This document shows positions 4,178-41,248 of a stretch of 64,000 nt of DNA, piece by piece. Location of the stretch: IMG/VR virus record IMGVR_UViG_3300035698_006513. The stretch is one strand, 5' to 3'. Positions within the stretch are counted from its first letter, which is position 1. Each line of letters begins with the position of its first letter. Both the position numbers and the translations under genes were made by a program. This stretch comes from a virus. The notes under the pieces are model-generated. The model ran no database searches. It was not told where the DNA came from and saw only the letters and a list, made by a program, of their open reading frames with translations.

Positions 4178-4203
4178 GGTATAAGAATACAGTAGTAGAT
4201 AAC
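4178..4203 (+). promoter_or_regulatory. Phage-specific promoter-like motif, copy 1
   Basis: GGTATAAGAATACAGTAGTAGATAAC, followed by GGAG RBS and ATG 4224. Confidence 0.65.
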
Positions 4204-5552: not shown

Positions 5553-5591
5553 GAAACAACGTGTAACTGCCACTATACGTTGTTTCTTAGC
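5553..5591. terminator. Hairpin followed by TTCTTAGC between convergent genes
   Basis: gaaacaacgtgta / tatacgttgtttc stem abutting the terminase stop. Confidence 0.5.
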
Positions 5592-7387
5592 TATAGGCCC
5601 ATTCCTGCTGGTTGGAAGTTAGGTATACCTTCAGGGAAGAGAACTTGTGGTGAGGGGTTACCTGATATAAACGATGTGAGGTAGCAGTACACTAATGCGT
5701 TCCAAGTATCATCTGGACCATTGTGCGAGTACCTATAGAGATGGGATGTACTCTCAATATGCTCTGCGAATATGTTGAGTATGTCTGTCCCACACGGGTC
5801 CACAAACTCACTCCATTCGGGGAAGCGGAAGTACCCTTCTCTGAGAGCTAAGAAAAGCGAATCGTAAATCTCAGGCTTACTGCACATGAATCTACCTAAA
5901 TCGCGATTATACTTAATGACGTACTTAGGCTCTGCATATTGGTAGATGTTTACTTTTTGTCTTCCTAGTCGTCTTACCAACGTTCTATTTCTATCCTGAC
6001 CCATACCGTAATCAGTACCAACAGAAGTAACGTTGAACTCTCTCACTAAACGTACGATGTAGGGTATGAGGTTTGCGGGATCACGCAACTGACCTGTGCA
6101 TCTCTTCGCAAAGAACACGTCAAACTTATTGTCTTTCAGCGTGGCCATTGTGATTACATCGTAGGATGCTTCCGTCTCACCAGGAGACCAATCTATACCC
6201 ATCCATACTGGGTTATTAGCAGACCAATCTCTATACGCACCTAGGTCAGATAGTCTTGCCCCATTACAATGGACAGATAGCGCATCACGTGTGATAGGTC
6301 TAGTAGCAGAATCATCACTGATACCTAGACGCTCATTACGAAACAGTGTAGGGCGCATAGTTTCGTAGTCATGTATAAAGTCTCCCCACGCATCTCGGTC
6401 AAGTATGATCCAGGGCGTCTGCAGCTGAGTAATATGGAATCCCCACCAAGGTCCGCCGTTAGGGTTCATGGGTTGCCAGTGGCATTGAGGTAGGAACGGG
6501 TTGATAGCGCGTTTACATTTACCGCACACTACTCCGTTGCGACCAATATTCTCTTCTGTTAGTGGTTGCCACCGTGGGCCTAGATGTAAGTGTTGCGCGT
6601 TCGCTTTTGATTTCTCTGAGGTTCCACAGTGCAGGCAAGGAACTACCCACTCACATTGTTTAGATCTCTGAAAATCTATTTCAATCTGGTTATCTAATGT
6701 GAGTGGGGTACCTGAACGAATCTGCCTACGCACAGTAGAGTGATGTAAGCAGGCTTCGATAATAGGTACCAGGTCCGGTTTAATGTCTTGGTACTCATCT
6801 ATTTGTAGCTCATCCGCAAACTTACCACGTAGACGATTAGCATTATGATATGCGTAGTAAAGCATATACACAGAACCAGTACCTTGCCACCTCTTAAGGT
6901 ATAGACTCTGGTCACCCATACCGCCCATAAATGGTTGAAGTTCGGGTGACTGGTATATAATGTCATCTACCTTGTCTCTAGAAAATGTCTTAGTCTGTTC
7001 ATTAGAAGGGGATACATAGATAGTACGAAACCCATTGTGAAGACAACAAGATGTGATGGCTCTATTGGCAAGGAACGTACTCTTCTCTGTTTGACGTGAG
7101 CATTTCCAAAGAATCAATCTAATATCAGAGTCGTATATTTCGCGTAGGTAATCTCTGCCGTAGAACGTGAATGGTCTGTACTCCTTGTCGTAGTATACCT
7201 GCACACCCCACTCCACAAATGCAGATGGTGCCACGTCAATTCTAGAATCTTCTACCTCCCAATTAGGACCCATGTCTATGTTGTCCATCTCTATTTCAAA
7301 CTTACTGATCTCCTCCGCCATTTTGTCCGCAGACTTATGTGCCTTAACTACATCCTTGTAGTTTTGGTAACGCATTATGTTAGGCAT
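5591..7387 (-). CDS. terL: Terminase large subunit (lambda GpA-like ATPase + Zn finger + RNase H-like nuclease)
   Basis: Walker A KCSRQTEKST, Walker B LQIDEYQD, RSGTP motif, CxxC...CxxC, nuclease MGIDWS and GPDDTWNALVY. Confidence 0.9.
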   Translation of the reverse strand: MPNIMRYQNYKDVVKAHKSADKMAEEISKFEIEMDNIDMGPNWEVEDSRIDVAPSAFVEWGVQVYYDKEYRPFTFYGRDYLREIYDSDIRLILWKCSRQTEKSTFLANRAITSCCLHNGFRTIYVSPSNEQTKTFSRDKVDDIIYQSPELQPFMGGMGDQSLYLKRWQGTGSVYMLYYAYHNANRLRGKFADELQIDEYQDIKPDLVPIIEACLHHSTVRRQIRSGTPLTLDNQIEIDFQRSKQCEWVVPCLHCGTSEKSKANAQHLHLGPRWQPLTEENIGRNGVVCGKCKRAINPFLPQCHWQPMNPNGGPWWGFHITQLQTPWIILDRDAWGDFIHDYETMRPTLFRNERLGISDDSATRPITRDALSVHCNGARLSDLGAYRDWSANNPVWMGIDWSPGETEASYDVITMATLKDNKFDVFFAKRCTGQLRDPANLIPYIVRLVREFNVTSVGTDYGMGQDRNRTLVRRLGRQKVNIYQYAEPKYVIKYNRDLGRFMCSKPEIYDSLFLALREGYFRFPEWSEFVDPCGTDILNIFAEHIESTSHLYRYSHNGPDDTWNALVYCYLTSFISGNPSPQVLFPEGIPNFQPAGMGL

Positions 7388-7408: not shown

Positions 7409-7417
7409 GTATAAGAG
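7409..7417 (+). promoter_or_regulatory. Partial promoter motif (GTATAAGAG)
   Basis: Core of the motif, upstream of AAGGAG and ATG 7462. Confidence 0.4.
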
Positions 7418-7461
7418 GGTGAACCATAATTGTCATCAATAAACTATCATAAGGAGAAGGT

Positions 7462-8409
7462 ATGTACCAGCCGTACAGTAATTATCCCATCCACGAAGAC
7501 CTGCAAATAATTTATACGGAAGATGCGTATAAAACAGCAGTCGCCTACGCCAACTTGTATAACAACTTGGAGTTTATGTTAGTGCCAGTGTGTGGACTCA
7601 TACTTCGTAAAGACGTGTCACCCCTACGAGAGCTGGAGCTATCCGACGTGGAGGCCATCGTTGTACATAAGTACATCCACCCACCACATCAAATAAACAC
7701 AGGAGCGCACACTGGCATAATTCAAAGCAAGCGTCAGGAAGTATCCGACCTGATCACAGAAGAGATAACGCGCCTCCGAGATGAATACCCACGCCTGGGT
7801 AACTTCATTAAGTTCCACGCACATCCGTTTACAGGTGGCAGATTCCTCTCTGGTGGAGACATCAATGCCAACTTAGTGGGTGAAAACCTCCAACGTTGGC
7901 GAAGTGAGACTGGAATAAGTTTTGTACCCATGCAGGTGATCTGGCCACTGGAGGGGATTAGCATGGGAAGAAACACGGACATCCGCGGTGGCGGCAATGA
8001 CAGTACATGGAATATCACAACATTCCTGCACATAGACAACCGCCTACATGTGACACCGCGTCCATCTATCCTTCGAGATAACCCCAAACACAACAGTATT
8101 TACAAACCCCCATTCTGGATGGACCACGAGGGTTGGTGTGTGAAACAGCGGGACAGTCTGAGAAACCGCTGGCCCGAAGCATCGTATAGATTCCTAGGTA
8201 GAGGTTGGGTGCAGTTCTTCGCACCGGGCAAACCTTACGGGATAATAGTGACCTTGGGACCGGACTTTCCTAACCAACCCGCAGAAATATTCATCGTACC
8301 ACCGCAGACATCCGTCGCACAATTCATGAGAGAAAAGACGTTTGCCGTTGAAGACCTGGATACATATGACTTGATGTGGGACTTTGACTCTGTAATGAGA
8401 GGTGGGTGA
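7462..8409 (+). CDS. JAB/MPN+ metallo-isopeptidase with C-terminal E2/UBC-like domain
   Basis: Upstream Glu (NLEF) plus HAHP-FTGGRFL-SGGD (HxH-x8-S-x2-D) at 7816-7860; IIVTLGPDFPNQPAEIFI resembles the UBC/RWD YPxxxP motif; ends in RGG. Confidence 0.7.
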   Translation: MYQPYSNYPIHEDLQIIYTEDAYKTAVAYANLYNNLEFMLVPVCGLILRKDVSPLRELELSDVEAIVVHKYIHPPHQINTGAHTGIIQSKRQEVSDLITEEITRLRDEYPRLGNFIKFHAHPFTGGRFLSGGDINANLVGENLQRWRSETGISFVPMQVIWPLEGISMGRNTDIRGGGNDSTWNITTFLHIDNRLHVTPRPSILRDNPKHNSIYKPPFWMDHEGWCVKQRDSLRNRWPEASYRFLGRGWVQFFAPGKPYGIIVTLGPDFPNQPAEIFIVPPQTSVAQFMREKTFAVEDLDTYDLMWDFDSVMRGG

Positions 8410-8413
8410 AACT

Positions 8414-8626
8414 ATGGACAACATGGAAGATGTAGTGAGGAGCTGGTGTCGGACATCTCCCAGTGAGTTTGACCTAGACACATTGCAAGTAGAGAAGAAG
8501 AAAATAAAAGTAGGATTGAGGAAGCCTCTATCGAGGGAGAAAAAAACACTCATTGAGGCGGCAACAAAGAACGCGGGCGCACGCTGTAGAATCACTACGT
8601 TTGTAGTGGAAGTGTACTTACGTTAA
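8414..8626 (+). CDS. Small basic hypothetical protein
   Basis: Follows the JAB gene; GAGGTG SD upstream of ATG 8414. Confidence 0.55.
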   Translation: MDNMEDVVRSWCRTSPSEFDLDTLQVEKKKIKVGLRKPLSREKKTLIEAATKNAGARCRITTFVVEVYLR

Positions 8627-13897: not shown

Positions 13898-16800
13898 TTA
13901 GTACGCCCAGGGTTTATCTGGTGTGCCTTTACCAAATTCCTTACCCCATACCAGTGCAGGTATTGGATGGCTGCCGTGTATATCAGATTCCCACCCTTGG
14001 AGGGCAGCGTCTGTAAACGTGGACTTTAACTTCTCATAGTTTGCGCGAGCTAAGAAATCTTCTGTCTGTACCAAAGGTAGCACATTCACCCCTTTCAGTA
14101 CAGGAACTGATTTTATGTCTGCTCGCTGCTCTTTATTTAACTTGTTGATGGTAGGTGTAGTCAGGTAATCACCATGTGTGACTCCAGACGCATTACCAGG
14201 ATCAACTACTTCGGCCAAATCCGTCAGTGATTTAACGACCACTTCGACGTTCTTTCTATTGTAGGGATTTGTCCTAAATAACTGGCTGAGCTCGTCAGTC
14301 AAGTACGCTCTTACTTTTTTGATACCATTCTTGGGACCGTGTGCCTGCATCAGCTCCCGCGGATTAACGAACCCCGGAGACAGTGACTGACCCCTCTTCA
14401 CAATATCCCCGTCTTTCACTGTGGGACGGAATTGTGTCTTGTGGTCCTTACCATCTACTGTCACCAAAAATCCTCCAGTGGGAGATTTTCTGACATTGGA
14501 TACCTTACCACTGCGCATACCTAATGTTGTAGCATTAGGTAGCGTGGAGGGGAATGTTGTCAGCTGTGTTGCGCGTTCAAACTGCGACACAGACTTTGCA
14601 CCTCCGCCCTTGGCCACACCACCTTCGTGGAATGCATTCATGGATCCCTGAGACAAGGGCTCACCTATAGCTTGGCCTGCAATGACCCCTATATTCACAC
14701 CAGGATTGTGTAGCTTGCCTTCTTCGTTAAGACCGAAACACTTCGAGCATATACCATCATTGTGTTCGCACTTTAGCGGACTACGTACAACAATAGAGTT
14801 TATGTGGTCTTTGCCTTTGGTAAGTGATTTCTGTAGATCTTTGTCTACCAGAGTTCCTGCTTCGTACACATGCCCGTCCGCGGATACTGATTTGCCTAAG
14901 TATCTACCTATCGTATGCGGATCATTTGCTTTCATAAGCAGACCCTCAGTTGTACCGCAGTCATTCGCGCCTATGATCTGATGCATTGTGGTGTTGATAA
15001 TTTTCTTAGACATAGCTCCCGGATCGGAAGTACCTGTGGCTCTCTGCACAATACCCTTACGCGCACCATGTTGAGTTTCCCAATGAGAACCAAAGTCCAA
15101 CCCCTCTGCATATGAGCGTGTCACGGGATTTTCTCTTGTACGAGAAAGACCATCCTGCACTAACATAGGGGCACCTAACATTTGACGCATCTGCGCTACG
15201 GATCCACGTGCACCAGACGCATTCATATGATAAATGGCGTTGTCCGTGTCTTTAAATTTGTTATTCATTGCGTCTAGTAGTGAATCAGTAGCATCATTGT
15301 ACACACCTATAACGCGTTCCCGTTTCTCGTCTTTACTGATACCTTTCTTTGCGCGGATAGCTGCAGCTTTTTTGTGTGCGGCCTTTAACAAAGGGTCTCT
15401 AACATCTGCTGCGGAACTAAGGTCCTTGATTGATATAGTACGACCGGTTCTATACGCAACATGGTTTCCTTGTTTCAACATACTCTGCACCGTTCGAGGA
15501 TACTCTTTGGGGAACTCGCGTGCAACTTTGTGTAACATTCCTCGCATACGAGACTTGTTGATAACGTACTCTGGGTTAGTGAGGTGTTCACCTCCCCGCA
15601 TACTTTCGGGTAACATGTCATCAATAAGTAAACGTCCTGCAGTAGTACGCATATCGCCTACCCCCACAACGTCATCCATATTTATCTTACCTGCAGATAA
15701 CGCCTGCTGTGCAGCATCTCTGTTTTTGTAGCTCTTATTCGTTTTCTTCCCCCACTTACTCATATGGTACAGACCCCACACGGCCTCTTGCGAAGGTTTG
15801 TGTGCAGGTTCTCCGTGAGTAGTGTTGAACAATTTCTTACTAGGTAACATGTTCTTGGCTTCTTCTATACCACCGGGAGATACGGGTACGAATGCAGCCA
15901 TCTGGTCACCATCGAAGTCAGCGTTAAAACCTTCACACGATAGTGGGTGAAGCCGGATAGCATCCCCGTCTACTAGTACAGGTTTATATGCCATTACACT
16001 AAATGCGTGCAACGCGGGGTCGCGTTTCAGTAGAACAGGATGAAATTCTTCCTGCCCCATACCGTTTTTGCGGCGCATCACATGTTCTAACGCTTTGTAC
16101 GCTTGTGGGTCACCTGAGTCTATCATGTCTTGTGCTTTACGGGCCAAGCCACGGCGCTTCAATTCCGCCTTAACCAACGGAGTAAACATCTTGAGCGCAG
16201 ACTTCTTTGGTAATCCTACCTCATCCATGTCTAGATCAGCACCTACCGTGATTGTGGTACGCATGGATAAATCTTGGCGTTTAGAGACTAACTTGTCCTG
16301 GAAGAATCCCTCTTTAGGTTTCTTGCCTGCAATCAACTCTAAGATACCTAATGTGTCTTCATTCTCTCTGGGGATGATAGATCTGTCTTCTTTATACGGT
16401 CGACTCTCGCCTCCGAACAGTTTCCACACTTGGCCTAACAGCGACCTACGTAATTTGGTCTTCTCGGTAAGAGGCATAAGCGGGTGGAACGTTTTCAATT
16501 GGTGATTAGTCAACCCTACGTATTTGTACAGGCCATTGAGAGAAGACCGGAAAGGACTGTTGTCGTCTGTAGCTAATACCGGTCTGAACTTCGGAGGCAT
16601 GACAGGAATACGTTTCAGCATGTACGACGTAGCTGGTAGTTTTTCGTTATCCAGCGCACGTAGATACTTGACCTTGTTTATCAAGGGACCTCTGGCACTA
16701 GCCGAAGCATTTTCTAACGCACCTTTGGCACTAGCTAACTCACCCTTCACATCAAGGTTATTCAACATGCTGTACAGAGCAGCGCCGCCAGTAGTAGCAC

Positions 16801-19800
16801 CTTCTGTTTCGGGGGCCACTAACTTACCGTCCTTCATCCCCTTTTCGCCCACAGATAAATCGATAAGCTCTTTGCGTTTGAGGCCAGTAAGCGCCACAGC
16901 ACCCTTAAAAAATAAGGGGTTTATCACAGGCTCAGATAACGTCATGTGCGACCACTTGGACCCATTCAATCCGCCAGTTAGGTGCCTATCAAACAATCCC
17001 CCGACCTCTTCTTTGTCACCAAATAATTGAAGCCAAGGTTTACGCAGTTCCCCTGCGGATAGTTTTTCTATCTGACTATCCATGAACGGGAGCATCTTGA
17101 GTTTATGCCCACGCTTTTCTAAATTCAGACCTACGCCTCGTAGGTACGCTTTGAATTTATCTACTGCGAATGACTGTTGGGGTGGGGGAATGGGCATCCC
17201 TCCTTCGATAGCTTCCCACAAACTGTCATTGCGGTTGGACGTGTATGTAGCCTTTTCCTTTATTAGATCACGTGCTCCGTGGGCTAGTAGTGCGTATAGA
17301 CCATACTGATCCATCTTCTGTGCACCAGTCTTTCCACCGCGTTTGGGAGCTTCATTTATATCGTATGCTCCGCGACCACGTACCGCTTGTTTCTTTTCAA
17401 TTTGTTGGTGTAGCTTCAGTATGTACTGAGGACCTATCCCTATCTGACCCAGACTCGTACCGTCTTTATCAAATAGCTCTTCTGTAGGAACGCCATTATG
17501 CTTATCTAGTTCTGCAGCTAAGTCCTTAGACCTATCAGAAAACCCGTGGTAATGATCCGCAACATATGGCTTGCCTGTTTTCTCTGCTATCTTACCGGCA
17601 GCAAGTTCTGACACTTGCCCCAGATTCATACGGGTTGGTACGGTAGTTGGGTTCATGAGTACTTTGACTGCGCGTCCGTCTTTTGTGTGAGGCATGTCCT
17701 CATCAGGCTTTACCTTAACTACAATACCTTTATTTCCGTGACGTCCAGATAACTTGTCCCCTTCGCGCATAGGTTCTTCTGTACGCACGTACGCAGTAAC
17801 ATATTTACCTTTACGTACAACGTCTACCACTTTTCCTGTGGCGTCCTTGTCCCAAATTTCAGACTTATCATCCATTGGGCGGAACAGGACTTTCTTCATC
17901 TTTTGTAGGGAACCTGAAGTAGTATTAGATGTGGACTTGCGTAATACAGACATGATGGTATCACCAGGTGTAAGTTCCTGCCCAACTTTTATTACCCCCG
18001 TATCATCTAACTTATCTTGTTGTCCATGAGTCATAGCGTCTTTATAATAGCGGAGGAAGTCCCTCTTATTAAGAGTTGTGTCTTTGCTGATCTCTGTAGT
18101 GAATCTGTACAGGTGTGGAGATGTCATTTCATCCGCAGCACTCTGTGAGATAACTACTCCATCCTCAAAGTTCTCCCCACCAGAGGGCATAAACGCAGTC
18201 AGCATATTACGTCCCATAGCAAGCACACCATCTTTTGTGTAGTTGGTGTCTGCTAAGGTTTGCCCTGACTTAACTTTATCACCCACTTTGACTAAAGGTT
18301 CTGCGTGCATAAACACACCGACCTTAGCATCGTTTAGGGGGTAGTTATTATAGATGGGTACAACAGTATCCTTACCCTTTTTACCACTTATAGTAATGTT
18401 ATCTTTAGTGATTCTGGTAATGGTACCAGCTGTCGGTGATGTGTGTGACGCAAACTCACCGTACACTTCTTCTACAGATTTACCGTTACCTGCGTTGGAC
18501 TGTACTAAGGGGGCCTGCCTCCTGACCATAGGTATAGCTTGACCCATTTGTCTACCGGACATCATAATACGCGCACCATGATTCTGGTTCACAAATGGTA
18601 CAGCAGATGAGATAGGTCCCATAAGTGCCGGAGCAGATGGTAATATGTAGTCTACGCTTTTAAGACTAACCTGCTGACGTTCACCACCAACATCAGCCCA
18701 CACCGTTTTATTACTACTGGTAGGCTTACCGTCTTTCCACTTGAACTGATCAGGGTATGCAATTTTATTATTGTCATGAAGTTTGATGGGGTCTATCAAA
18801 CTCATACTCTTCTTCTTAGCGTCCCATATCGGGGTAAGAAGTTTGTTGTCTTGTTTTACCACTCCCATAGGAAGATGCTGAACTACACCTGTTCTCTTGC
18901 TCTCTGGGGTATGCGTAGGATCCAAGAATCCTAGGTGCGTTTTATCTATAAGTGTGTTTTCTGGTATGATTTGGTCTTCTGATGTGATACCACCAGATCC
19001 CATCAGAGTAGTCTGTCTTTGATCAGATAACATACTGAGTGGGTTTATTTGACTACCTAGAAGAGTACGTGTGTCTTGTGTGAAGAAAGATTTGACAGGG
19101 AGATTAAACGTCCCCGGAGACATTATCTGCCTAACGTCCGTCTTCTTATCTAAGTTATTCTTAACTCTGCGCATGATTTCGCGACGAGAGTTCTTTATCT
19201 TCTCAGGTATATGGTCTTCTACACTCCACACTTCCTTGAAACCCAAGTCCTCAAGATTATCTACTACGTCTTCATCTCTGGCAACACGGTACAACTTAGC
19301 TGCAGCTGTAGTAAGAAGGTCACCACTGACGGAGGTAAATGCCTTACCTAATGTCTTTTTTGTAGTGTCGCCATAAAGTTCCGTGGTAGCGAAACTTGCC
19401 TTAATACCTTGTATAGCCTCTTCCATGTTTTCCGGCTTCTTGCGATTAAGGGCTTCGTACATCTTATAGATTTCGTTAGCGCCTTTATCCTTCTTCCCCT
19501 TACCGCTAGTAATTGCAGAGCGGTTGATGGCTAGTGTGTCTGCTCCCCACTGGGAAGATATATCATCGTCCGACATACCCATCGCCCGAAGTACGGGGTA
19601 CAGATGTATGTTCTTTTTACTGCCACCACCTGTAGGATAGCTCAACATCATATGACCATTGTCATGCATGTCTAGACTAAACCCTACACCTTGACGCAGA
19701 TTGAACTGACTAGTGAGTTTCCCATTCTGTCTACGTTTAGCGTAAACGCCTGACTTTAACCTGAACTGATTTTGTACGTACCTACCCTGTCCGCGTACAA

Positions 19801-20104
19801 TGTATGTGTACTCTCTGGTTATCTTAGGTAAGCGAAGAAGGTTCATGCGACTCTTCGAGAGTACATCACCCGATTTATTATCTACCAACTCCAAGTCACC
19901 TACTAATGGCGCACCCCAAGTTTGGTTATTTTGTCTAGCCTTTTTTTGGCTAGTGACATCGTTAGACGATAAATTATCGTTGAACACCGCGGAGTTCAAG
20001 TTTATCGTGTGCTGATTCCCAACAATGGGAAAATAATCCTCTACGGATTTCTGTACACGCTCTTTTGTTAAGTCGAACTGATGCTCTGGAGAGAGATTCG
20101 CCAT
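13898..20104 (-). CDS. rpoBC: Fused beta-beta' multisubunit-type DNA-directed RNA polymerase (~2068 aa)
   Basis: Beta motifs: NPLS..., DPTHTPES, NFEDG, GDKLSGRHGNKG, PTRMNLGQ, GAQKMDQY. Beta' motifs: PVMPPKFRP, KRQDLSMR, RDPALH, catalytic NADFDGD (15905-15925), SGARGS, GEPLSQGSMNAFHEGG. AAGGAGG RBS favours a start at 20104. Confidence 0.97.
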   Translation of the reverse strand: MANLSPEHQFDLTKERVQKSVEDYFPIVGNQHTINLNSAVFNDNLSSNDVTSQKKARQNNQTWGAPLVGDLELVDNKSGDVLSKSRMNLLRLPKITREYTYIVRGQGRYVQNQFRLKSGVYAKRRQNGKLTSQFNLRQGVGFSLDMHDNGHMMLSYPTGGGSKKNIHLYPVLRAMGMSDDDISSQWGADTLAINRSAITSGKGKKDKGANEIYKMYEALNRKKPENMEEAIQGIKASFATTELYGDTTKKTLGKAFTSVSGDLLTTAAAKLYRVARDEDVVDNLEDLGFKEVWSVEDHIPEKIKNSRREIMRRVKNNLDKKTDVRQIMSPGTFNLPVKSFFTQDTRTLLGSQINPLSMLSDQRQTTLMGSGGITSEDQIIPENTLIDKTHLGFLDPTHTPESKRTGVVQHLPMGVVKQDNKLLTPIWDAKKKSMSLIDPIKLHDNNKIAYPDQFKWKDGKPTSSNKTVWADVGGERQQVSLKSVDYILPSAPALMGPISSAVPFVNQNHGARIMMSGRQMGQAIPMVRRQAPLVQSNAGNGKSVEEVYGEFASHTSPTAGTITRITKDNITISGKKGKDTVVPIYNNYPLNDAKVGVFMHAEPLVKVGDKVKSGQTLADTNYTKDGVLAMGRNMLTAFMPSGGENFEDGVVISQSAADEMTSPHLYRFTTEISKDTTLNKRDFLRYYKDAMTHGQQDKLDDTGVIKVGQELTPGDTIMSVLRKSTSNTTSGSLQKMKKVLFRPMDDKSEIWDKDATGKVVDVVRKGKYVTAYVRTEEPMREGDKLSGRHGNKGIVVKVKPDEDMPHTKDGRAVKVLMNPTTVPTRMNLGQVSELAAGKIAEKTGKPYVADHYHGFSDRSKDLAAELDKHNGVPTEELFDKDGTSLGQIGIGPQYILKLHQQIEKKQAVRGRGAYDINEAPKRGGKTGAQKMDQYGLYALLAHGARDLIKEKATYTSNRNDSLWEAIEGGMPIPPPQQSFAVDKFKAYLRGVGLNLEKRGHKLKMLPFMDSQIEKLSAGELRKPWLQLFGDKEEVGGLFDRHLTGGLNGSKWSHMTLSEPVINPLFFKGAVALTGLKRKELIDLSVGEKGMKDGKLVAPETEGATTGGAALYSMLNNLDVKGELASAKGALENASASARGPLINKVKYLRALDNEKLPATSYMLKRIPVMPPKFRPVLATDDNSPFRSSLNGLYKYVGLTNHQLKTFHPLMPLTEKTKLRRSLLGQVWKLFGGESRPYKEDRSIIPRENEDTLGILELIAGKKPKEGFFQDKLVSKRQDLSMRTTITVGADLDMDEVGLPKKSALKMFTPLVKAELKRRGLARKAQDMIDSGDPQAYKALEHVMRRKNGMGQEEFHPVLLKRDPALHAFSVMAYKPVLVDGDAIRLHPLSCEGFNADFDGDQMAAFVPVSPGGIEEAKNMLPSKKLFNTTHGEPAHKPSQEAVWGLYHMSKWGKKTNKSYKNRDAAQQALSAGKINMDDVVGVGDMRTTAGRLLIDDMLPESMRGGEHLTNPEYVINKSRMRGMLHKVAREFPKEYPRTVQSMLKQGNHVAYRTGRTISIKDLSSAADVRDPLLKAAHKKAAAIRAKKGISKDEKRERVIGVYNDATDSLLDAMNNKFKDTDNAIYHMNASGARGSVAQMRQMLGAPMLVQDGLSRTRENPVTRSYAEGLDFGSHWETQHGARKGIVQRATGTSDPGAMSKKIINTTMHQIIGANDCGTTEGLLMKANDPHTIGRYLGKSVSADGHVYEAGTLVDKDLQKSLTKGKDHINSIVVRSPLKCEHNDGICSKCFGLNEEGKLHNPGVNIGVIAGQAIGEPLSQGSMNAFHEGGVAKGGGAKSVSQFERATQLTTFPSTLPNATTLGMRSGKVSNVRKSPTGGFLVTVDGKDHKTQFRPTVKDGDIVKRGQSLSPGFVNPRELMQAHGPKNGIKKVRAYLTDELSQLFRTNPYNRKNVEVVVKSLTDLAEVVDPGNASGVTHGDYLTTPTINKLNKEQRADIKSVPVLKGVNVLPLVQTEDFLARANYEKLKSTFTDAALQGWESDIHGSHPIPALVWGKEFGKGTPDKPWAY

Positions 20105-20132
20105 ATTATAATCCTCCTTACAATGCACTCAT

Positions 20133-20181: not shown

Positions 20182-20195
20182 GGTATAAGAGTATG
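20182..20195 (+). promoter_or_regulatory. Promoter motif core (GGTATAAGAGTA)
   Basis: Matches the first 12 nt of copies 1-3; precedes AGGAG and ATG 20238. Confidence 0.55.
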
Positions 20196-20381: not shown

Positions 20382-20500
20382 TGTGGATGCTGTTCTTAGT
20401 CTCATTCGCATTTGGTTTTTCGTCTTCAGTAAGCGGCGCATTAACAATGGAAGCGATAAAAATCGCACAAGAGGAGGAAGGATACGATGGGGATGGATAA
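20381..20500 (+). CDS. 39-aa hydrophobic peptide
   Basis: TAATG stop/start overlap; MWMLFLVSFAFGFSSSV... Confidence 0.45.
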   Translation: MWMLFLVSFAFGFSSSVSGALTMEAIKIAQEEEGYDGDG

Positions 20501-20963
20501 CTATTGTCCCTTCTGTGAAAACAAATTGTACGAAGGTGACGAGATAATAATAGTCACCGCAGGATCGATGTCTTGGGGCGACAAGTCCCGACTTCTGTAC
20601 TGTGACCCGTACGAAAGATTCGGACGTAAACCTGCAGAGTTAATACTCCACATGGAGTGTTTCGAGGACGGACCCCAAAGAGATGAGACAGAGTTACTCG
20701 CGGTGGTTCTGTCTGAACATGCACTGATGTGGCCACAGTGCTGTTTGTGTGAAGAACCTTTGGCAGCGGGGGATGAAGTGTATATGTTTCAAGAAGGAGC
20801 GCTTGAACGTATGGAAGTACACATTCAGGAAATAGCCCGCGTAAATGAGTTCTGTGCAGTGAGAGCTGCATATTCTCATACTGGGTGTGTAGGTAAATCC
20901 GCTAAAGTATGGCTACCCAAGGATAATGGAGTATACCAGGAGGAGATGAAAGGTATATTTTAA
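20487..20963 (+). CDS. Protein with two CxxC...HxxC zinc-finger repeats
   Basis: CPFCENKLYEGDEI...HMEC and CCLCEEPLAAGDEV...HTGC; GAGGAGG upstream. Confidence 0.65.
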   Translation: MGMDNYCPFCENKLYEGDEIIIVTAGSMSWGDKSRLLYCDPYERFGRKPAELILHMECFEDGPQRDETELLAVVLSEHALMWPQCCLCEEPLAAGDEVYMFQEGALERMEVHIQEIARVNEFCAVRAAYSHTGCVGKSAKVWLPKDNGVYQEEMKGIF

Positions 20964-35059: not shown

Positions 35060-37858
35060 ATGAGGCTACTCCCTCAATACGAAATTGTACAAACAGAGGG
35101 AGAGGCTCAGAGGTTATTATCTCGCATAATGCTGCAACCCGAGGTCTCTGTTGATACAGAGACTGAGGGAGATAAGAAGGCAGACCGCTTAAATCGTTGG
35201 AAATCAACGGTTAATTGTTGGTCTGTCTCCTTTAAAGATGTAGCCTGTGCAGGTGGAGCAAATCGTATAGCAATACCTTATGATTTGCTTTTTATGTTTG
35301 AGCCCTTCTTTCAAGCAGAACACATAGACAAGATCTTCCATAATGCGCCGTTCGACTTGTGTATGCTGCATAATTCAGGAATACGTAATGTTAAAGGTAG
35401 GATCATCTGCACAGCAGCATTAGATGCTGTCATAGATGAGAACCGTTTTGGGGCACATGGGCTTAAGGAATGTTCGTGGGACTACTTGCAACTCATCATG
35501 CGTACCTTTGAGGACACGTTTGGTAAAATACCCCTTAACGAGTTTACAATAGTAGAGAAAGCGGATTACGCAACAGAAGATGCATGGGCTACACTGCTAC
35601 TATATTGGAAACTTCGGGATCTTGCTGAGGGTGAAGAGTTAGGTGAGCAGCATGGAGAGACGTATTCCCTTTGGAATATGTACGAAGACCACATCATACC
35701 ATTCAATCGCACTATTACTAATATGTGCATCCGCGGGTGGAGACTAGATAGAGAATACCTATCTAGACTGGGACCTGCAATCCAAAATGACATAGAGCAG
35801 ATAGACTTTGTGTTTAATAGGTATGCAGCCATACACGCCGCACATCAAGGTATCGCGTTACACGAATTAGAGTGGGAACGTGGCGTTAAACACAAAAGAA
35901 TGCGTCCCGTATTCCCAGACGGAATAATAAATCCCGGATCTAATAAACAACTCGCGTATTTCTTTGTGGAAGTTCTAGGTCTTCCTATCATCAAGATGAC
36001 TGAAGGGGGGCAGTCAGGTGTACCAGACATCTCTATGGATGACTCTGTGCTCAAAGAGTATGTCAAATCACATGACTGCAACTTCGCGTCATTAGTACTG
36101 CAACGTAGAAGCCTAAACAAAAGTCTAGGCACATATGTACGTGGTCTCCAGAAATGGATGGATACGCGAAACAAGATACATGCGTCATTAAGAGTTATGG
36201 GTGCGCGTACAGGTAGACTATCCTGCTCTGATCCCAACCTTCAAAATATACCTAGGCCGGACGGGGATATATACGGTCTACGATCTGCATTTATTGCAGA
36301 TCGAGGACACGTACTCATCGTTGCTGACTACTCTACACTAGAGATGCGTATTGCTGCATCTATGTCTAAATGCCCTGACCTCATTGAGGCAATTAACTCG
36401 GGCTTAGACCTACACTGCCAAACAGCAGCGAATATGTTTGGTATACCTTACGACGACCTCTACTACGCCAAGGAAAATATCCATAACATGGAACTTAGCC
36501 TAGCAGAGCGACTCACACTGGCTCCTTTAGTAGCACAGCGTGGTGCAGCTAAAGCTATTGGATTCGGTTTGACCGGAACTGATTCATTTGGTATTGTGTC
36601 TCTATAAGGAGACAACTATGAAAACTATACAAGTTACTTGTGAGCACTGTGGAGTACATTTTACATATGAGCGTGTACGTATCGACGGAGGTAGGTACCG
36701 GAAGACATGCGACGTGTGTAGAAAAGATAACCGCCGTATAAAACAGCGATCTGCGGATATGAAATTCCGTGAAAATAGAGGTCATGTTGTTGGGTGCGGT
36801 TCTGGTGGTAATCAGTGGGGTGATCACAACCATTCATGGAAGGGTGGTTGTGTACGAGTATGGAGACAGCTGTGTTTCGAGGCACACGGAGCTGTATGTG
36901 CACATTGTGGGTTCACACCACAATCACGTGAAACATGGCACCTACTCGTAGCTCACCATATTAACGAAGACCGTACTGATAATAGAACGGAAAACTTGCG
37001 CGCAGTGTGCAAGAAATGCCATCAGAATATTGAACATCTACAGGTGCGCAATACCAAAGGTCAGTATGATGGCCGAAATAAAACTGCGGAATAAAGCGGG
37101 GACGTCCTAAAAGCAGGATAACCCGAACCGAAGACTAGGAGTAATATTCTAGTCAGGGGCAACGACTAGGTGACGAAACTATCTTAGATAGAATGTAATT
37201 CACCCACGAGGCCGCGGCACCGAGATACTTAGGTATGGTGGTGAAAAGATAGTCTGGACTGTGCATATAGCTTAATAAGAAAGCACAGAAGTATTGGATA
37301 AAGAGCCAGTACGGTAACAAAGCGATTCTATACGGTAGAGGCCCTAGGTCTCTTGCAGAAATACTAGGTCTACAGGAAAAGCATGGGATTAGCGAAAGAG
37401 CTGCTATCCGCATGGCGCAAGACCTAATCAACCAATTTTACGCTGTGTACCCGAGACTACATGCGTATACACAAGAAGTGCTCTGGCAATGTCAGAGAGA
37501 TGAATACGTCCAGACCTGGCTACTTCGTAAACGCAGACTCATATCAATCAACTCTGAAGATGATGCAGCACGGTCTCAGGCAGAAAGACAAACTCTAAAC
37601 TCCATCATTCAAGGTACAGCTTCAGATGTAGCTATGGTGGCGATGAATATGGTCGAGTACGATCCTGTAATGAATGAGATCGGTGCCTCATTGCTGATGC
37701 AAATACACGATGAGCTAATCATACAAGTGCCAGAGCAGCATAGAGTCGTAGCAGAGGCGAGATTGCGATTCCTAATGGAGGAGCCATTTGTTGGGCATTT
37801 CGCAGTAGCATTATCCGTTACTAGCGATAGCGCACTCACATGGGCAGATGCAAAATGA
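35060..37858 (+). CDS. polA: Family A DNA polymerase with 3'-5' exonuclease, in two exons: join(35060..36568,37325..37858)
   Basis: ExoI VDTETE, FHNAPFD, YATEDA, TGRLSCSDPNLQNIP, motif A DYSTLEMR, motif B KAIGFG|ILYG restored by splicing, motif C QIHDEL. Confidence 0.92.
36569..37324 (+). ncRNA. Group I self-splicing intron in polA motif B
   Basis: Exon ends in U and intron ends in G; P3 ctgcgg(37084)/ccgcgg(37212); P7 gacta(37164)/tagtc(37250); R-like gcaacgactag and S-like aagatagtct. Confidence 0.88.
36618..37094 (+). CDS. Intron-encoded HNH homing endonuclease
   Basis: AAGGAG RBS; CAHCG...HHINEDRTDNRTENLRAVCKKCH; N-terminal CxxC pairs. Confidence 0.9.
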   Translation: MKTIQVTCEHCGVHFTYERVRIDGGRYRKTCDVCRKDNRRIKQRSADMKFRENRGHVVGCGSGGNQWGDHNHSWKGGCVRVWRQLCFEAHGAVCAHCGFTPQSRETWHLLVAHHINEDRTDNRTENLRAVCKKCHQNIEHLQVRNTKGQYDGRNKTAE

Positions 37859-38301
37859 GAAAAGACTCAAAAGATGCTCAAAGAATTATCCACGCGTACA
37901 GAAAGGTACAAGGGGAACTTGGTGACCCCGATTACCGAGATGACCATGCGATTCTTTCTGTACGTATGTGGCTGGAGGTGTTAGCGGAGGAGTTCGCAAC
38001 TGCAGGTAAAATTGTCATCCCTGAAATAGGGACGTTAATCTGTGAGCGTGTATCAAGCAAGAGACATTTATATGCGTTCAAACCTAGCAACAACATGCGC
38101 AAGCGCATACAGGAGCAGAGTATGTCGAAAGAAGATCAAGATAACCAAGGTATGACTAAACTTGGTGTGTACACAGGTGAACCAGGTGAAGACAAAACTG
38201 CATCTCCTCGAGGGCGATGTCGTAAGTGCGGGAAAGCATTAGTGTATCAACACGGCCAATACGTGTGCCCGGAACACGGAACCGAGGGGTCAGAGAGATG
38301 A
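37855..38301 (+). CDS. HU/IHF-like DNA-binding protein fused to a C-terminal Zn ribbon
   Basis: KIVIPEIGTL...FKPSNNMRKRI HU signature; CRKC...CPEHG. Confidence 0.65.
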   Translation: MRKDSKDAQRIIHAYRKVQGELGDPDYRDDHAILSVRMWLEVLAEEFATAGKIVIPEIGTLICERVSSKRHLYAFKPSNNMRKRIQEQSMSKEDQDNQGMTKLGVYTGEPGEDKTASPRGRCRKCGKALVYQHGQYVCPEHGTEGSER

Positions 38302-39464
38302 GTAAATTAGAACGCATACGCGAGATGCGTGCAGATATGGGAGAAACCTTACCTAACGTACGTATGACTTCGGCAAGAGATTCACACAATCCACTCATGA
38401 TTAGGTCCCCTGTGGGGATTGCATCAATAGACTTGGCTATAGGTGGTGGGCTGCCTCCCGGTCCTGTTGAGTTCTGTGGACCAGAGAACTCAGGAAAGAA
38501 TGTACTGTGTAATAGTGCTATGGCTATGAATCAGAGTCTGCACGGAGAAAACAGCGCCATCGCACTAATCAGCACAGAAGGTCCTTGGGATATGAATCTG
38601 TCTCGTAAAATGAAGGTGACCATGCCTTACTCCGAATCGGAGATCTGTGCACTGGAGAGCCAAGCTGGTTACGATTTCTCTGATTCAGTCAAAGGAGAGC
38701 TGCAGCAGGAGATGGGTATTGTCGAGTTGGTACGCGCATCTACCGCGGAAGAAATACTAGAGTCTGTGATTAAACTCATCGAAATAGACGAGTTCCAAAT
38801 TATAGTGTTGGACTCTATTGCTGGGCTGCTCACGCATGAGGAAGGTACTCACGCATTGGTAGAGCGTAAAATGCTTTCTATGGAAATACCTCGAGTGATG
38901 GCCAGATTCTTCCGTAGAGCAAATGAAGCCTGGCTGAACGAGCCTCACGGAAGACCAAACCTCACAACACTGATATTTACTAATCAGCTGATGGCTAGAG
39001 TCGGGGGGTTTAGTAACCCCAACTTACCACCGCCTACCCAAACCAAAGGTGGATGGGCTACTAAACACTCGAAGCTGCTTAGCATATCCCTGAAACGAGG
39101 TACCTGGATTAACACAGGGCGGACCAAAATCGGTCACGAAATAAAATGGCAGATTGTTAAAGGCAAAGCAGGCTGTGCGGATGGGGCGGCAGGAGCGTTA
39201 CAGTTCCATACCACCGAGGACAACTTCGGGGTAGATGTGAAAATGGACACGCTGACCGCAGCCCAAACCTGTGGGATAGTTATCCGCAGAGGTGCTTACT
39301 ACGACATACCGTGTGCAGGAATAGAAAACAAGCGTGGAAAAGATTCTGCACTACGCGCACTAGAGCAGTGGGATCCTAATTGGGAAATAAAACTTCAACC
39401 TGAAATAATAAGAGCGAGCGGCCTTCATGTCTACTCAACCTGGTCAGAGGTCCAAGATAGCTAG
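38298..39464 (+). CDS. recA: RecA/UvsX-like recombinase
   Basis: GIASIDLAIGGGLP, GPENSGKN, IVLDSIA, LIFTNQL, GGWATKH; ATGA overlap at 38298. Confidence 0.9.
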   Translation: MSKLERIREMRADMGETLPNVRMTSARDSHNPLMIRSPVGIASIDLAIGGGLPPGPVEFCGPENSGKNVLCNSAMAMNQSLHGENSAIALISTEGPWDMNLSRKMKVTMPYSESEICALESQAGYDFSDSVKGELQQEMGIVELVRASTAEEILESVIKLIEIDEFQIIVLDSIAGLLTHEEGTHALVERKMLSMEIPRVMARFFRRANEAWLNEPHGRPNLTTLIFTNQLMARVGGFSNPNLPPPTQTKGGWATKHSKLLSISLKRGTWINTGRTKIGHEIKWQIVKGKAGCADGAAGALQFHTTEDNFGVDVKMDTLTAAQTCGIVIRRGAYYDIPCAGIENKRGKDSALRALEQWDPNWEIKLQPEIIRASGLHVYSTWSEVQDS

Positions 39465-40665
39465 ACGTCAGGCATTTGACACGGTTGCGCGACTAGGTGG
39501 AGTTGTGCAGCCGGGGTCGGGGAATCAGTGGCATTCCCGAGGTGACGTAAGAATTGAAGATTACATGCTGGTAGAGAACAAGTTTACCGATAACCAGCAC
39601 ATTGTATTAAAGGAGGAGGTGGTACTGAAGATTATGGATGAGTCCTTCGGTTCAGGGAAGGACCACTGGGCGGTGGATTTATGGATACGACCTTTGCAGT
39701 GGAGAGTGGTGGCTGTGTGTTCACATTTTGTGAGTAGAGCTGTGGATGGCGGGTATACACTCCCCTCCGATATACCCCACATGCATATACAAAGGAAACA
39801 AGTCACACTTCGCCCACGCTCACACACAGAGAGCCCATTTATTCACATCACTACAAACTGGGGACAGGACTTAGAGTTTTACCTAGTGAGTATGAAGTAC
39901 ATGGAGAAGATGATGGTAGCAGTTAGAGACCCGGAACTCAGACAACATCTAGGTCAAGCAAAATTACTTTACCGATTCTACGGAGAAGACCTCTCTCGCA
40001 AACCTCGCGAGAGAGCTATCGGAGTTATAGGCGGATCTGACTTAGGGAGCTGCAAACGCAAAACATGGTATCGCCTTACAGGGAATGAGCCTCGATCTCT
40101 GTTCTCTGCGGATACGCAGGTCATATTCCGTATTGGACACGCTGTGCACAAATTCATACAGGATGATTTTACATTCCTGTATGGACCACGTGTGTTTACC
40201 CCAGAAGTAATGACTCGAAGAGATGAGTACTGTTTCCAGGGCGCGTTAGACGGTACGTTTAACTTAGACGGCATAGGTGAGTACTCCCCAGAGGAGTGGG
40301 TAGGTGACGCTACGCTGATAGGACTAGAGCATATGCATATGGCTATTGCCGACGGAGCTAAACTGCTGCTGGAAATAAAGTCATGCTCCACTATACCAAA
40401 CACACCTAATCCAAAACACCTGCTACAGGCCATTGGGTATGGTATGTCCGCAGGTATGACTGACATATGTTTCCTCTACGTACATAAATCTAGCGGACAG
40501 ATCGTAGACTTCGTACGAAAAGTAGACAACCCGTCCGTGCAGCGTACTGTTAACACAGAATTAGCATATATCGTAGGGAAAGCAAATGACGGAACGCCAC
40601 CTCCAAGAGAGCAGACAAGAAACTGCAGAGACTGCGAATACCGATGGGTATGCCAGCCAGAGTAG
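39427..40665 (+). CDS. Double PD-(D/E)xK nuclease: Holliday-resolvase-like domain + Cas4/RecB-like Fe-S exonuclease
   Basis: PGSG...GDV...LVENK; then SCKRK...GHAVH...LDG...LEIKS...LQ...CRDCEYRWVC. Confidence 0.8.
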   Translation: MSTQPGQRSKIARRQAFDTVARLGGVVQPGSGNQWHSRGDVRIEDYMLVENKFTDNQHIVLKEEVVLKIMDESFGSGKDHWAVDLWIRPLQWRVVAVCSHFVSRAVDGGYTLPSDIPHMHIQRKQVTLRPRSHTESPFIHITTNWGQDLEFYLVSMKYMEKMMVAVRDPELRQHLGQAKLLYRFYGEDLSRKPRERAIGVIGGSDLGSCKRKTWYRLTGNEPRSLFSADTQVIFRIGHAVHKFIQDDFTFLYGPRVFTPEVMTRRDEYCFQGALDGTFNLDGIGEYSPEEWVGDATLIGLEHMHMAIADGAKLLLEIKSCSTIPNTPNPKHLLQAIGYGMSAGMTDICFLYVHKSSGQIVDFVRKVDNPSVQRTVNTELAYIVGKANDGTPPPREQTRNCRDCEYRWVCQPE

Positions 40666-41248
40666 CGAGGGCATAGAAAGTGGATTCTTTGGTGCGACTG
40701 TAGCAAGAGTGCATAGTCGATTAGCCGACGACGTAGGATTCTTTGCGCGTATGAATAACTCATACCCCGTACCTGAGAACCCTGGAACACCAGCACTACC
40801 TCCTCCACATCAGCTCCTATCTATGGACCACAGGGTAATACTCGAAAAGGAGATTGAGTACAGTAGGTACCTACGTCACCTATACTCTGTTGTAGCCAGG
40901 CTAAAATCTGACCACAACAACATAAGTGATCGTATGGAAGCAATCATATACGCTGTACGCAAAGATTACCGTGATACGTCTACTAGAGACGACTTGAAAG
41001 AGAAGGTAGAGACTGACTCCCGCGTACTAGATGCAAGACACGCCCTACATGAAATAAAGCGAGAGATGGGTATTGTGGAAGGTGAGATTAAAGGTTCAGA
41101 GCGGGATTATGATACCCTACGCGAATTGTCATTCGTATTCGGTAGAGTTGGTAATTCTGCTCCAGGCCAATCAACCCCGCCACAGTCCGCACACAAACCT
41201 ATGCCTAGTTCCAGCGGCAACCGCAGACCTGCAAGGAGAGGTGGATGA
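40586..41248 (+). CDS. Coiled-coil protein, possibly a UvsY-like recombination mediator (start uncertain)
   Basis: Long helical region; context between nuclease and resolvase genes. Confidence 0.45.
   Translation: MTERHLQESRQETAETANTDGYASQSSEGIESGFFGATVARVHSRLADDVGFFARMNNSYPVPENPGTPALPPPHQLLSMDHRVILEKEIEYSRYLRHLYSVVARLKSDHNNISDRMEAIIYAVRKDYRDTSTRDDLKEKVETDSRVLDARHALHEIKREMGIVEGEIKGSERDYDTLRELSFVFGRVGNSAPGQSTPPQSAHKPMPSSSGNRRPARRGG

Follow-up and report, generated by a model that had tools for sequence, protein, structure and literature searches.

Bacterial ubiquitin-like conjugation, as carried out by the Cap2/Cap3 enzymes of cyclic oligonucleotide-based antiphage signalling systems (CBASS) and by the Bil and Bub systems, was linked to immunity against phages only in recent work, and to our knowledge there has so far been only speculation on how phages respond. 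One such speculation, made in the Bil paper, is that the JAB domains of phage tail proteins counter Bil (10.1101/2023.09.04.556158). Here we describe a gene of the virus record IMGVR_UViG_3300035698_006513 (IMG/VR), analysed as a stretch of 64,000 nucleotides that is called the window below. The gene encodes P0001, a predicted JAMM metallopeptidase fused to an E2-like domain without a catalytic cysteine (JAMM-E2L), and the same phage DNA encodes P0007, an E1-like enzyme. On sequence grounds, we assign P0001 to a rare two-gene unit of JAMM-E2L and E1, of which it forms the phage branch. The main interest lies in this phage-borne pair and in its tie to a cellular cassette with a candidate tag ending in Tyr, a cassette of which we found no description in the literature searched.

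Both proteins have likenesses in the Bil system: the JAMM fold of P0001 lies near BilC (8tyy_B, Z 11.0), and P0007 shares with BilD the tandem build of an inactive and an active adenylation domain (PMC10557695; 10.1101/2023.09.04.556158). However, BilD has a CYS domain of ~80 residues (PMC10557695), for which P0007 has no room, since only ~27 residues lie between its first CxxC pair and the invariant QPAT motif, and the JAB domain of P0001 is fused to a Cys-less E2-like domain. Moreover, no beta-grasp ubiquitin-like protein (Ubl) or active E2 was found in the window, the tag candidate of the cassette ends in Tyr, and the genes of P0001 and P0007 are phage-encoded and lie ~35 kb apart instead of forming one operon. 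In Bub, the JAB domain is held at an E1 without a catalytic Cys, in BubCD, and processes a precursor (10.1101/2024.11.21.623953). BubCD matches both P0001 (Z 9.1) and P0007 (Z 19.5) in structure, and the P0007 loop after CxxC contains an invariant Tyr, Y456, much as the crossover loop of the Cys-less BubCD is reported to have a single invariant Tyr (10.1101/2024.11.21.623953). In contrast to Bub, the JAB domain of P0001 has an E2-like domain instead of the E1 as its fusion partner, P0007 is a pseudo-dimer within one chain and not a homodimer, and neither a BubE/DUF6527 partner nor a Ubl-E2 fusion was seen.

Type II CBASS likewise combines a JAB peptidase with E1/E2-type enzymes that act on a non-ubiquitin C-terminus, and its Cap3 (9ild_A) matches the peptidase domain of P0001 at Z 12.2. 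The E2 of Cap2, however, is active and sits on the E1, whereas the E2-like domain of P0001 lacks the Cys and sits on the JAB; no CD-NTase, effector or other CBASS component was found, and P0001, P0007 and the large proteins around them are without a match to any PADLOC family. An E2 fold without a catalytic Cys that binds ubiquitin or other partners is also found in UEV proteins (Tsg101/Vps23, Mms2/Uev1) and RWD domains, and these give the best matches to residues 217-315 of P0001, but without detectable sequence similarity, and the P0001 domain differs in being fused to a peptidase. As to phage proteins, the lambda-type tail assembly protein K combines JAB with NlpC/P60 and goes together with the Ubl-like protein I (PMC1779556). 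P0001 resembles it as a phage-encoded JAB peptidase near virion genes but lacks an NlpC/P60 domain and a PHROG match, has no Ubl-like gene next to it, and is encoded on the strand opposite to the virion genes. Since there is no beta-grasp Ubl, no E1 CYS domain and no CD-NTase, and since the JAB domain is carried on an E2-like domain, we conclude that the P0001/P0007 pair stands outside Bil, type I Bub and CBASS Cap2/Cap3, while belonging to the prokaryotic ubiquitin-like conjugation and deconjugation machinery. Neither a JAB-E2L fusion paired with such an E1 nor a phage-encoded E1 was found in the literature searched, which is not proof of absence.

The two domains of P0001

An earlier note on this DNA had read P0001 as a JAB isopeptidase from a metal motif, E...HAHP-x7-S-x2-D, which is indeed present as E37 (in LEF), H119-A-H121-P and S130-G-G-D133. 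Across 41 aligned homologues, whose mean column identity is 25%, no columns other than E37, H119, H121, S130 and D133 are invariant, and the fold is that of an MPN domain, so the motif is not a chance match. The AlphaFold2 (AF2) model of P0001, made on the family alignment, has a mean predicted local distance difference test score (pLDDT) of 90.5 and a predicted template modelling score (pTM) of 0.89, the latter suggesting a fixed arrangement of the two domains. Residues 9-210 of the model take the MPN fold, with CSN5, Rpn11 and AMSH as Foldseek matches (best E 2e-7). VIA-align places this domain on Rpn11 at Z 13.7 (root-mean-square deviation 3.4-3.5 over 150-156 residues) and on PfJAMM1 of Pyrococcus at Z 13.1, as well as on Cap3, BilC and BubCD at the values given above. 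Consistent with this, the family profile matches the archaeal Rpn11 homologue 6fju (E 0.0026), and also AMSH/Sst2, over the HSHP...S..D stretch. The model, both structural comparisons and the alignment thus bear out the earlier note in its reading of a JAB/MPN fold whose metal site is intact and, because the five JAMM residues are invariant in the 41 homologues, P0001 is probably an active JAMM/MPN zinc peptidase. The site is also intact in every member of the phage clade described below. Of the 41 homologues, P0001 alone has a Gly-rich insertion (residues 163-182) in its MPN domain, where model confidence is low (pLDDT <50 at residues 171-178).

The C-terminal domain had been described in the earlier note as E2/RWD-like and without a catalytic Cys, and this description holds. 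VIA-align matches residues 217-315 to the UEV domains of Tsg101 (Z 7.7) and Vps23 (Z 7.6), to Ubc9 (Z 7.5) and to the RWD domain of GCN2 (Z 6.8), and at lower scores to the RWD/UEV domains of FANCL, KNL1, RNF25 and VPS37A; the UEV, Ubc9 and RWD matches lie at moderate values (Z 6.3-7.7), and most of the matches fall within the UBC/UEV/RWD superfold. A structure search of the ESM Atlas with residues 205-315 retrieved clusters carrying E2-CBASS, Prok-E2_E and UQ_con, together with two other MPN/Prok-JAB clusters (331-345 residues) that match over the C-terminal part of P0001. The conserved features of the domain are RGW and LPPxFP, with P267 and P270 nearly invariant in the 41 sequences, and we take LPPxFP to be the YPxxPP flap of E2/RWD domains. 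A conserved Cys or Ser is found in this domain neither in the 41-sequence nor in a 16-sequence alignment: the only Cys of the P0001 domain, C226, is not conserved, and none occurs in the 41 residues after DFPNQPA, the local form of the flap motif. As modelled, the domain best resembles an E2/UEV/RWD fold, and no thioester would be possible at it.

P0001 itself has no match in Pfam, PHROGs, PADLOC or NCBIfam, and Prok-JAB is matched weakly by 4 of the 41 family members. A word-indexed search of 5.8 billion proteins returned four relatives at 42-50% identity, and a profile search of 1.84 billion cluster representatives returned 45 homologues, nearly all of ~300 residues and matched over both halves. 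A tblastn search with P0001 against 50,697 phage records gave nothing, and a scan of IMG/VR with two alignments found no relative. Judged by these searches, the JAMM-E2L family is rare. Its maximum-likelihood tree consists of two clades, each with 100/100 support, of which one has 9 members and includes all five sequences with known phage context, and the other has 32 members and includes the cellular JAMM-E2L sequences; as this tree has no established root, it does not show which way the genes were transferred.

The E1-like partner and the cellular cassette

P0007 has no Pfam match of its own, but its homologues carry ThiF, and the family profile matches ATG7 (E 4.8e-7) across the nucleotide-binding motifs GxGTxG...VDxxxVSxxNPVRQ. 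The best structural match of its AF2 model (pLDDT 76.5, pTM 0.80) is BilD (8tyz_A, Z 23.4), with 375 residues aligned across model residues 4-546, and human UBA1 aligns over 423 residues at Z 21.1. The active domain matches MoeB (Z 21.3), Atg7 (Z 20.1) and Cap2 (7to3_A, Z 18.8) in addition to BubCD. On the strength of this model, P0007 is an E1 whose one chain combines two adenylation domains, one inactive and one active. Invariant in its family are GxGTxS, D279, K281, N287, R290, Q291, K303 and the two CxxC pairs. At the motif position that reads D-N in cellular E1s, presumably the Mg-binding Asp-Asn of E1 enzymes, P0007 has T-N and P0053 has L-N. The phage E1s also carry a C-terminal extension, absent from their cellular homologues, with C-x2-C ... 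F-C-S-x2-H; in P0007 it contains P-C-x-H-C ... F-C-S-x2-H, which resembles an FCS-type zinc finger and precedes a charged helix.

The association of JAMM-E2L with this E1 is clearest in cellular genomes. In contigs of metagenome-assembled genomes, P0015, a distant homologue of P0001, is encoded 4 nucleotides upstream of a gene for a 582-residue protein that is a full-length homologue of P0007 (BLASTP 6e-61). Scanning GTDB with the E1 alignment, one genome per species, yielded ten loci. In eight of the eight informative ones, i.e., those that are cellular and not cut off (L019-L024, L026 and L027), a hidden Markov model (HMM) of JAMM-E2L matches the open reading frame (ORF) directly upstream of E1, with E values from 1e-85 to 1e-108; left out of this count were a 3-kb fragment (L025) and a 7.6-kb phage-type contig with the closest relative of P0007 (L018/L014). 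JAMM-E2L lies directly upstream of E1 in L003, L012 and L017 as well, and L006 gives weaker support. In phage DNA the two genes occur together but at a distance: of two related contigs from one metagenome, with coverage of 5.5 and 5.7, one carries JAMM-E2L beside the terminase (L009) and the other carries E1, which follows a RecA-like gene and closes the replication block (L013), and these split positions match those in the window. The adjacency in the eight cellular loci, together with the co-occurrence in related phage, backs the link between P0001 and the enzyme at 43614 that the earlier note had suggested. P0001 and P0007 are orthologues of the cellular JAMM-E2L and E1, with the phage sequences forming a sister clade.

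The cellular genes are part of a larger cassette (Table 1), which in the eight loci runs from a small protein through a Zn-ribbon E2, JAMM-E2L and E1 to a ClpA/ClpB-like ATPase, often preceded by two SPFH/Band-7 paralogues and a protein with two transmembrane segments. The transmembrane protein has a Gly-rich tail, and the ATPase has two rings and matches NCBIfam ClpB at 1e-216, below the equivalog cut-off. The E2 carries an N-terminal Zn ribbon and, in most copies, the core PxNWPRxxPxIY ... H ... L-C-N-Y-x2-W; in the L007 subclade the core reads YPHGFP ... H ... M-C-L-Y, with a Trp five residues after the Tyr. The flap motif of P0001 (DFPNQPA/LPPxFP) is placed by hhalign on PxNWPRxxPxIY of this E2, but weakly, and we do not accept homology between the E2-like domain and the Zn-ribbon E2 from flap motifs that align only at E 0.073. 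The small protein ends in V-D-L-x2-D-x-[FY]-Y in eight loci, where the conserved Tyr is the last residue in three and is followed by 1-3 residues (R, G, RS, LGS) in the others. From these sequences it is a candidate tag precursor that would be trimmed by the peptidase, with Tyr in place of the Gly of ubiquitin. Cassette hosts include archaeal metagenome-assembled genomes (one of Woesearchaeota), Parcubacteria, Myxococcota and Proteobacteria. PADLOC found nothing in the cassette beyond weak Cap2-type E1-E2 matches on the E1 and generic AAA+ matches, and neither PADLOC nor NCBIfam has a name for it.

Only two of these genes have counterparts in the window. When the cassette proteins of L003 were searched against it by tblastn, JAMM-E2L (2.6e-18) and E1 (2e-57) were matched and nothing else fell below E 0.03. 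HMMs of the Zn-ribbon E2, the Tyr-ended small protein and the two-transmembrane protein had no match in the 64 kb, and both a regular expression for the VDLxxDx[FY]Y tail and the search for a ClpA/B-like unfoldase were negative in the window as well as in the eight related phage loci searched.

Function of the pair and rival explanations

The explanation that we favour, and think rather probable, is that JAMM-E2L and the tandem-domain E1 act as a unit in which the peptidase serves tag processing or deconjugation with the E1, the phage use being most plausibly interception. A role in processing or deconjugation is reasonable because an intact JAMM site is combined with a Cys-less E2-like domain and with linkage to an E1. 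The earlier note had proposed a deconjugase that strips Ubl or CD-NTase conjugates; its deconjugase part remains reasonable on these grounds, but its CD-NTase part found no component to attach to. The JAMM domain would cut the tag at its C-terminal end, where it would either trim off the 0-3 residues beyond the Tyr or free the tag from its targets. The inert E2-like domain would dock on or recognise the E1 encoded at 43614-45431 or the tag, by analogy with the binding of ubiquitin by UEV domains and the docking of E2s on E1s. Docking through this domain would hold the peptidase at the E1 without the covalent fusion of BubCD, and the pair thus bears on how peptidases are recruited to E1 enzymes without fusion.

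What the phage gains can be stated less firmly. The pair may intercept or reverse tagging by the putative host cassette as a counter-defence, a possibility that we put forward tentatively; it fits because the phage keeps only two cassette genes, the peptidase being intact and the E1 perhaps altered. That an E1 and a JAMM peptidase with a decoy E2 domain were captured and long kept by a lineage of large phages, so as to disarm or hijack a host system that tags with the Tyr-ended protein and unfolds, is a slightly more doubtful proposal. Several points weigh against interception and against the unit as we describe it. In one cellular subclade (P0014, L016) a different gene lies downstream of JAMM-E2L. 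A tag or an E2 may lie elsewhere in the larger phage genome, of which 64 kb were read. With Thr-Asn at the presumed Mg-binding site, P0007 may not adenylate, and at Z 6.8-7.7 the modelled C-terminal domain may share only a common arrangement with UEV, E2 and RWD domains. If interception is nevertheless true, then, as far as the literature was searched, P0007 would be the first phage-encoded E1-type enzyme and the pair the first viral counter-measure to a bacterial ubiquitin-like pathway that uses that pathway's own enzymes. A deep phage clade keeps an intact JAMM site with an inert E2-like domain and a canonical-type, CYS-less E1, both homologous to the core of the cassette, and the pair thereby bears on whether viruses of prokaryotes turn ubiquitin-system enzymes on their hosts, as eukaryotic viruses do.

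Alternatively, the phage could run a complete tagging pathway of its own, with the tag and an active E2 encoded outside the window, to modify phage or host proteins in, for example, virion assembly or host takeover, and JAMM-E2L would then process or edit. Such a pathway would suit the retention of both genes through deep divergence (28-45% identity for E1 and 42-50% for JAMM-E2L within the near phage clade), the Cys/His tail that the phage E1s have gained, and the conserved small gene after JAMM-E2L; in addition, most of the phage genome lies beyond the 64-kb window. We nonetheless consider it unlikely, as the 64 kb and the eight related phage loci hold no homologue of the cassette E2, tag, membrane protein or unfoldase, and neither Gly nor Tyr is conserved at the C-terminus of the small protein encoded downstream. 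Quite improbable is a JAMM peptidase apart from tagging, be it a virion or tail maturation protease like the JAB of lambda gpK, or a RadC-like or other MPN enzyme, with the C-terminal domain as a structural add-on. The gene does lie between the large terminase and virion genes, and JAB domains of phage tail assembly are known, as noted above, but JAMM-E2L is transcribed opposite to both neighbouring modules, P0001 has neither an NlpC/P60 domain nor a PHROG match, its cellular homologues are found in E1/E2 cassettes and not in virion modules, and the added domain is predicted to have the E2 superfold.

The C-terminus of P0001 invites another explanation, raised in the earlier note, namely that its terminal Gly makes P0001 a target of activation in its own right. 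As a modifier or substrate, P0001 would have its RGG adenylated by the E1 at 43614 and would then be conjugated, as ubiquitin or the CD-NTases of type II CBASS are. The VMRGG end is present in the translation, and the genome also has a gene for an E1-like enzyme. However, lack of conservation of the terminal Gly-Gly had been named in that note as a refutation, and the pair is not conserved, being found in 2 of the 41 homologues, while four close relatives of P0001 end in RRGS, KEL, NGMKL and FRH. Residues 304-314 are modelled as a helix and not as a flexible tail, and the cellular cassette has a tag candidate of its own, ending in Tyr. Moreover, the RGG codons, 7 nucleotides before the ATG at 8414, also form the ribosome-binding site for the gene that follows, so the caveat attached to the original suggestion, that they overlap the Shine-Dalgarno sequence of that gene, was correct. 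Because Gly-Gly is so rarely shared, the C-terminus is modelled as helical and the codons have this second use, we reject self-activation; the modifier role has a very slight probability, and the terminal Gly-Gly of P0001 is incidental.

Genome context and other features

The window is phage DNA, as seen from a large terminase at 5591-7387 (-) that matches GpA_ATPase (2.7e-12) and phrog_675 (2.8e-52) and has at most 27% identity to that of any deposited phage. The JAMM-E2L gene is divergent from this terminase gene and convergent with virion-type genes on the minus strand, and its placement by the terminase recurs in all related contigs examined (L001, L002, L009/L010 and L011). Its ATG start is preceded at 5 nucleotides by a ribosome-binding site, AAGGAG, at 7451-7456. 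The coordinates of the features discussed are collected in Table 1.

Table 1. Features of the JAMM-E2L gene, its surroundings and its partner in the window, with an example of the cellular cassette
Feature	Position	Strand	Basis or remark
JAMM-E2L gene, P0001	7462..8409	+	ORF and translation, 315 aa, stop codon included
N-terminal MPN/JAMM metallopeptidase domain (predicted), ~residues 1-210	7462..8091	+	Foldseek, VIA-align, profile match
E37 codon, catalytic Glu of the JAMM motif	7570..7572	+	Invariant in 41 sequences
H119-x-H121-x7-S130-x2-D133 zinc-binding/catalytic motif	7816..7860	+	Four residues invariant in 41 sequences
20-residue insertion, residues 163-182	7948..8007	+	Gap in every other aligned homologue
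C-terminal E2/UEV/RWD-like domain (predicted) without catalytic Cys, ~residues 215-315	8104..8406	+	VIA-align, ESM Atlas
DFPNQPA (residues 268-274), local form of the family LPPxFP flap motif	8263..8283	+	Alignment
Arg-Gly-Gly codons AGA GGT GGG	8398..8406	+	Precede TGA; 7 nt upstream of ATG 8414
Possible phage promoter core GTATAAGAG	7409..7417	+	45 nt upstream of P0001 ATG
Small gene, 70 aa	8414..8626	+	ORF directly after JAMM-E2L
E1-like enzyme P0007, 605 aa	43614..45431	+	Inactive and active adenylation domains, two CxxC pairs, phage-specific C-terminal Cys/His tail
Cellular cassette (example)	L003 2909-12988		L012, L019-L024, L026, L027 likewise

The small gene at 8414-8626 has homologues directly downstream of JAMM-E2L in L001 (5008-5256), L002 (3970-4260) and L009/L010, and in these contigs, as in the window, the stop and start codons of the two genes overlap or closely abut. 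From this arrangement the small gene is apparently translationally coupled to JAMM-E2L, with the RGG codons serving as a Shine-Dalgarno-like site. The small proteins have 70-108 residues and share an N-terminal W-x-R-x2-P-x2-F motif, with variable, basic C-termini. The family libraries gave no match of note for the 70-residue protein, and we rejected it as a tag: for all its conservation, its C-terminus lacks a conserved Gly or Tyr.

Upstream of JAMM-E2L, a G-N-ATAAGA-R core precedes plus-strand gene islands embedded in minus-strand genes, at 4179, 4611, 4985, 7409 and 20183 (+). It could be a phage promoter, but this reading is only a lead because GNATAAGAR occurs 8 times in the window against 4.2 +/- 2.3 expected by chance, which is no excess. 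The GTATAAGAG core at 20183 lies ~300 nucleotides upstream of a gene at 20487-20963 (+) for a protein of 158 residues with two tandem CxxC...HxxC modules. This protein matches zf-FLZ (FCS-type zinc finger) weakly, at 4.9e-5 and just under the cut-off, and Prok-RING_1 at 0.022, and shows no similarity to the Zn-ribbon E2 of the cassette.

Another Gly-ended protein is encoded three genes upstream of E1, at 40586-41248 (+); it has 220 residues with a Pro/Ser-rich tail ending in RRGG, and was rejected as a modifier because its orthologue in L013 (7464-8012) ends in HQRP. The virion-gene block holds an ORF of 2076 residues at 13898-20128 (-), which has a counterpart of ~1950 residues in the same position in L009 (7062-11311). 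The replication block upstream of E1, at 35060-40665 (+), encodes a DNA polymerase of family A that includes a 3'-5' exonuclease domain (3e-41), a protein resembling RecA (1.9e-14) and one of 412 residues whose C-terminus is weakly PD-(D/E)XK/Cas4-like, and its order is conserved in L013.

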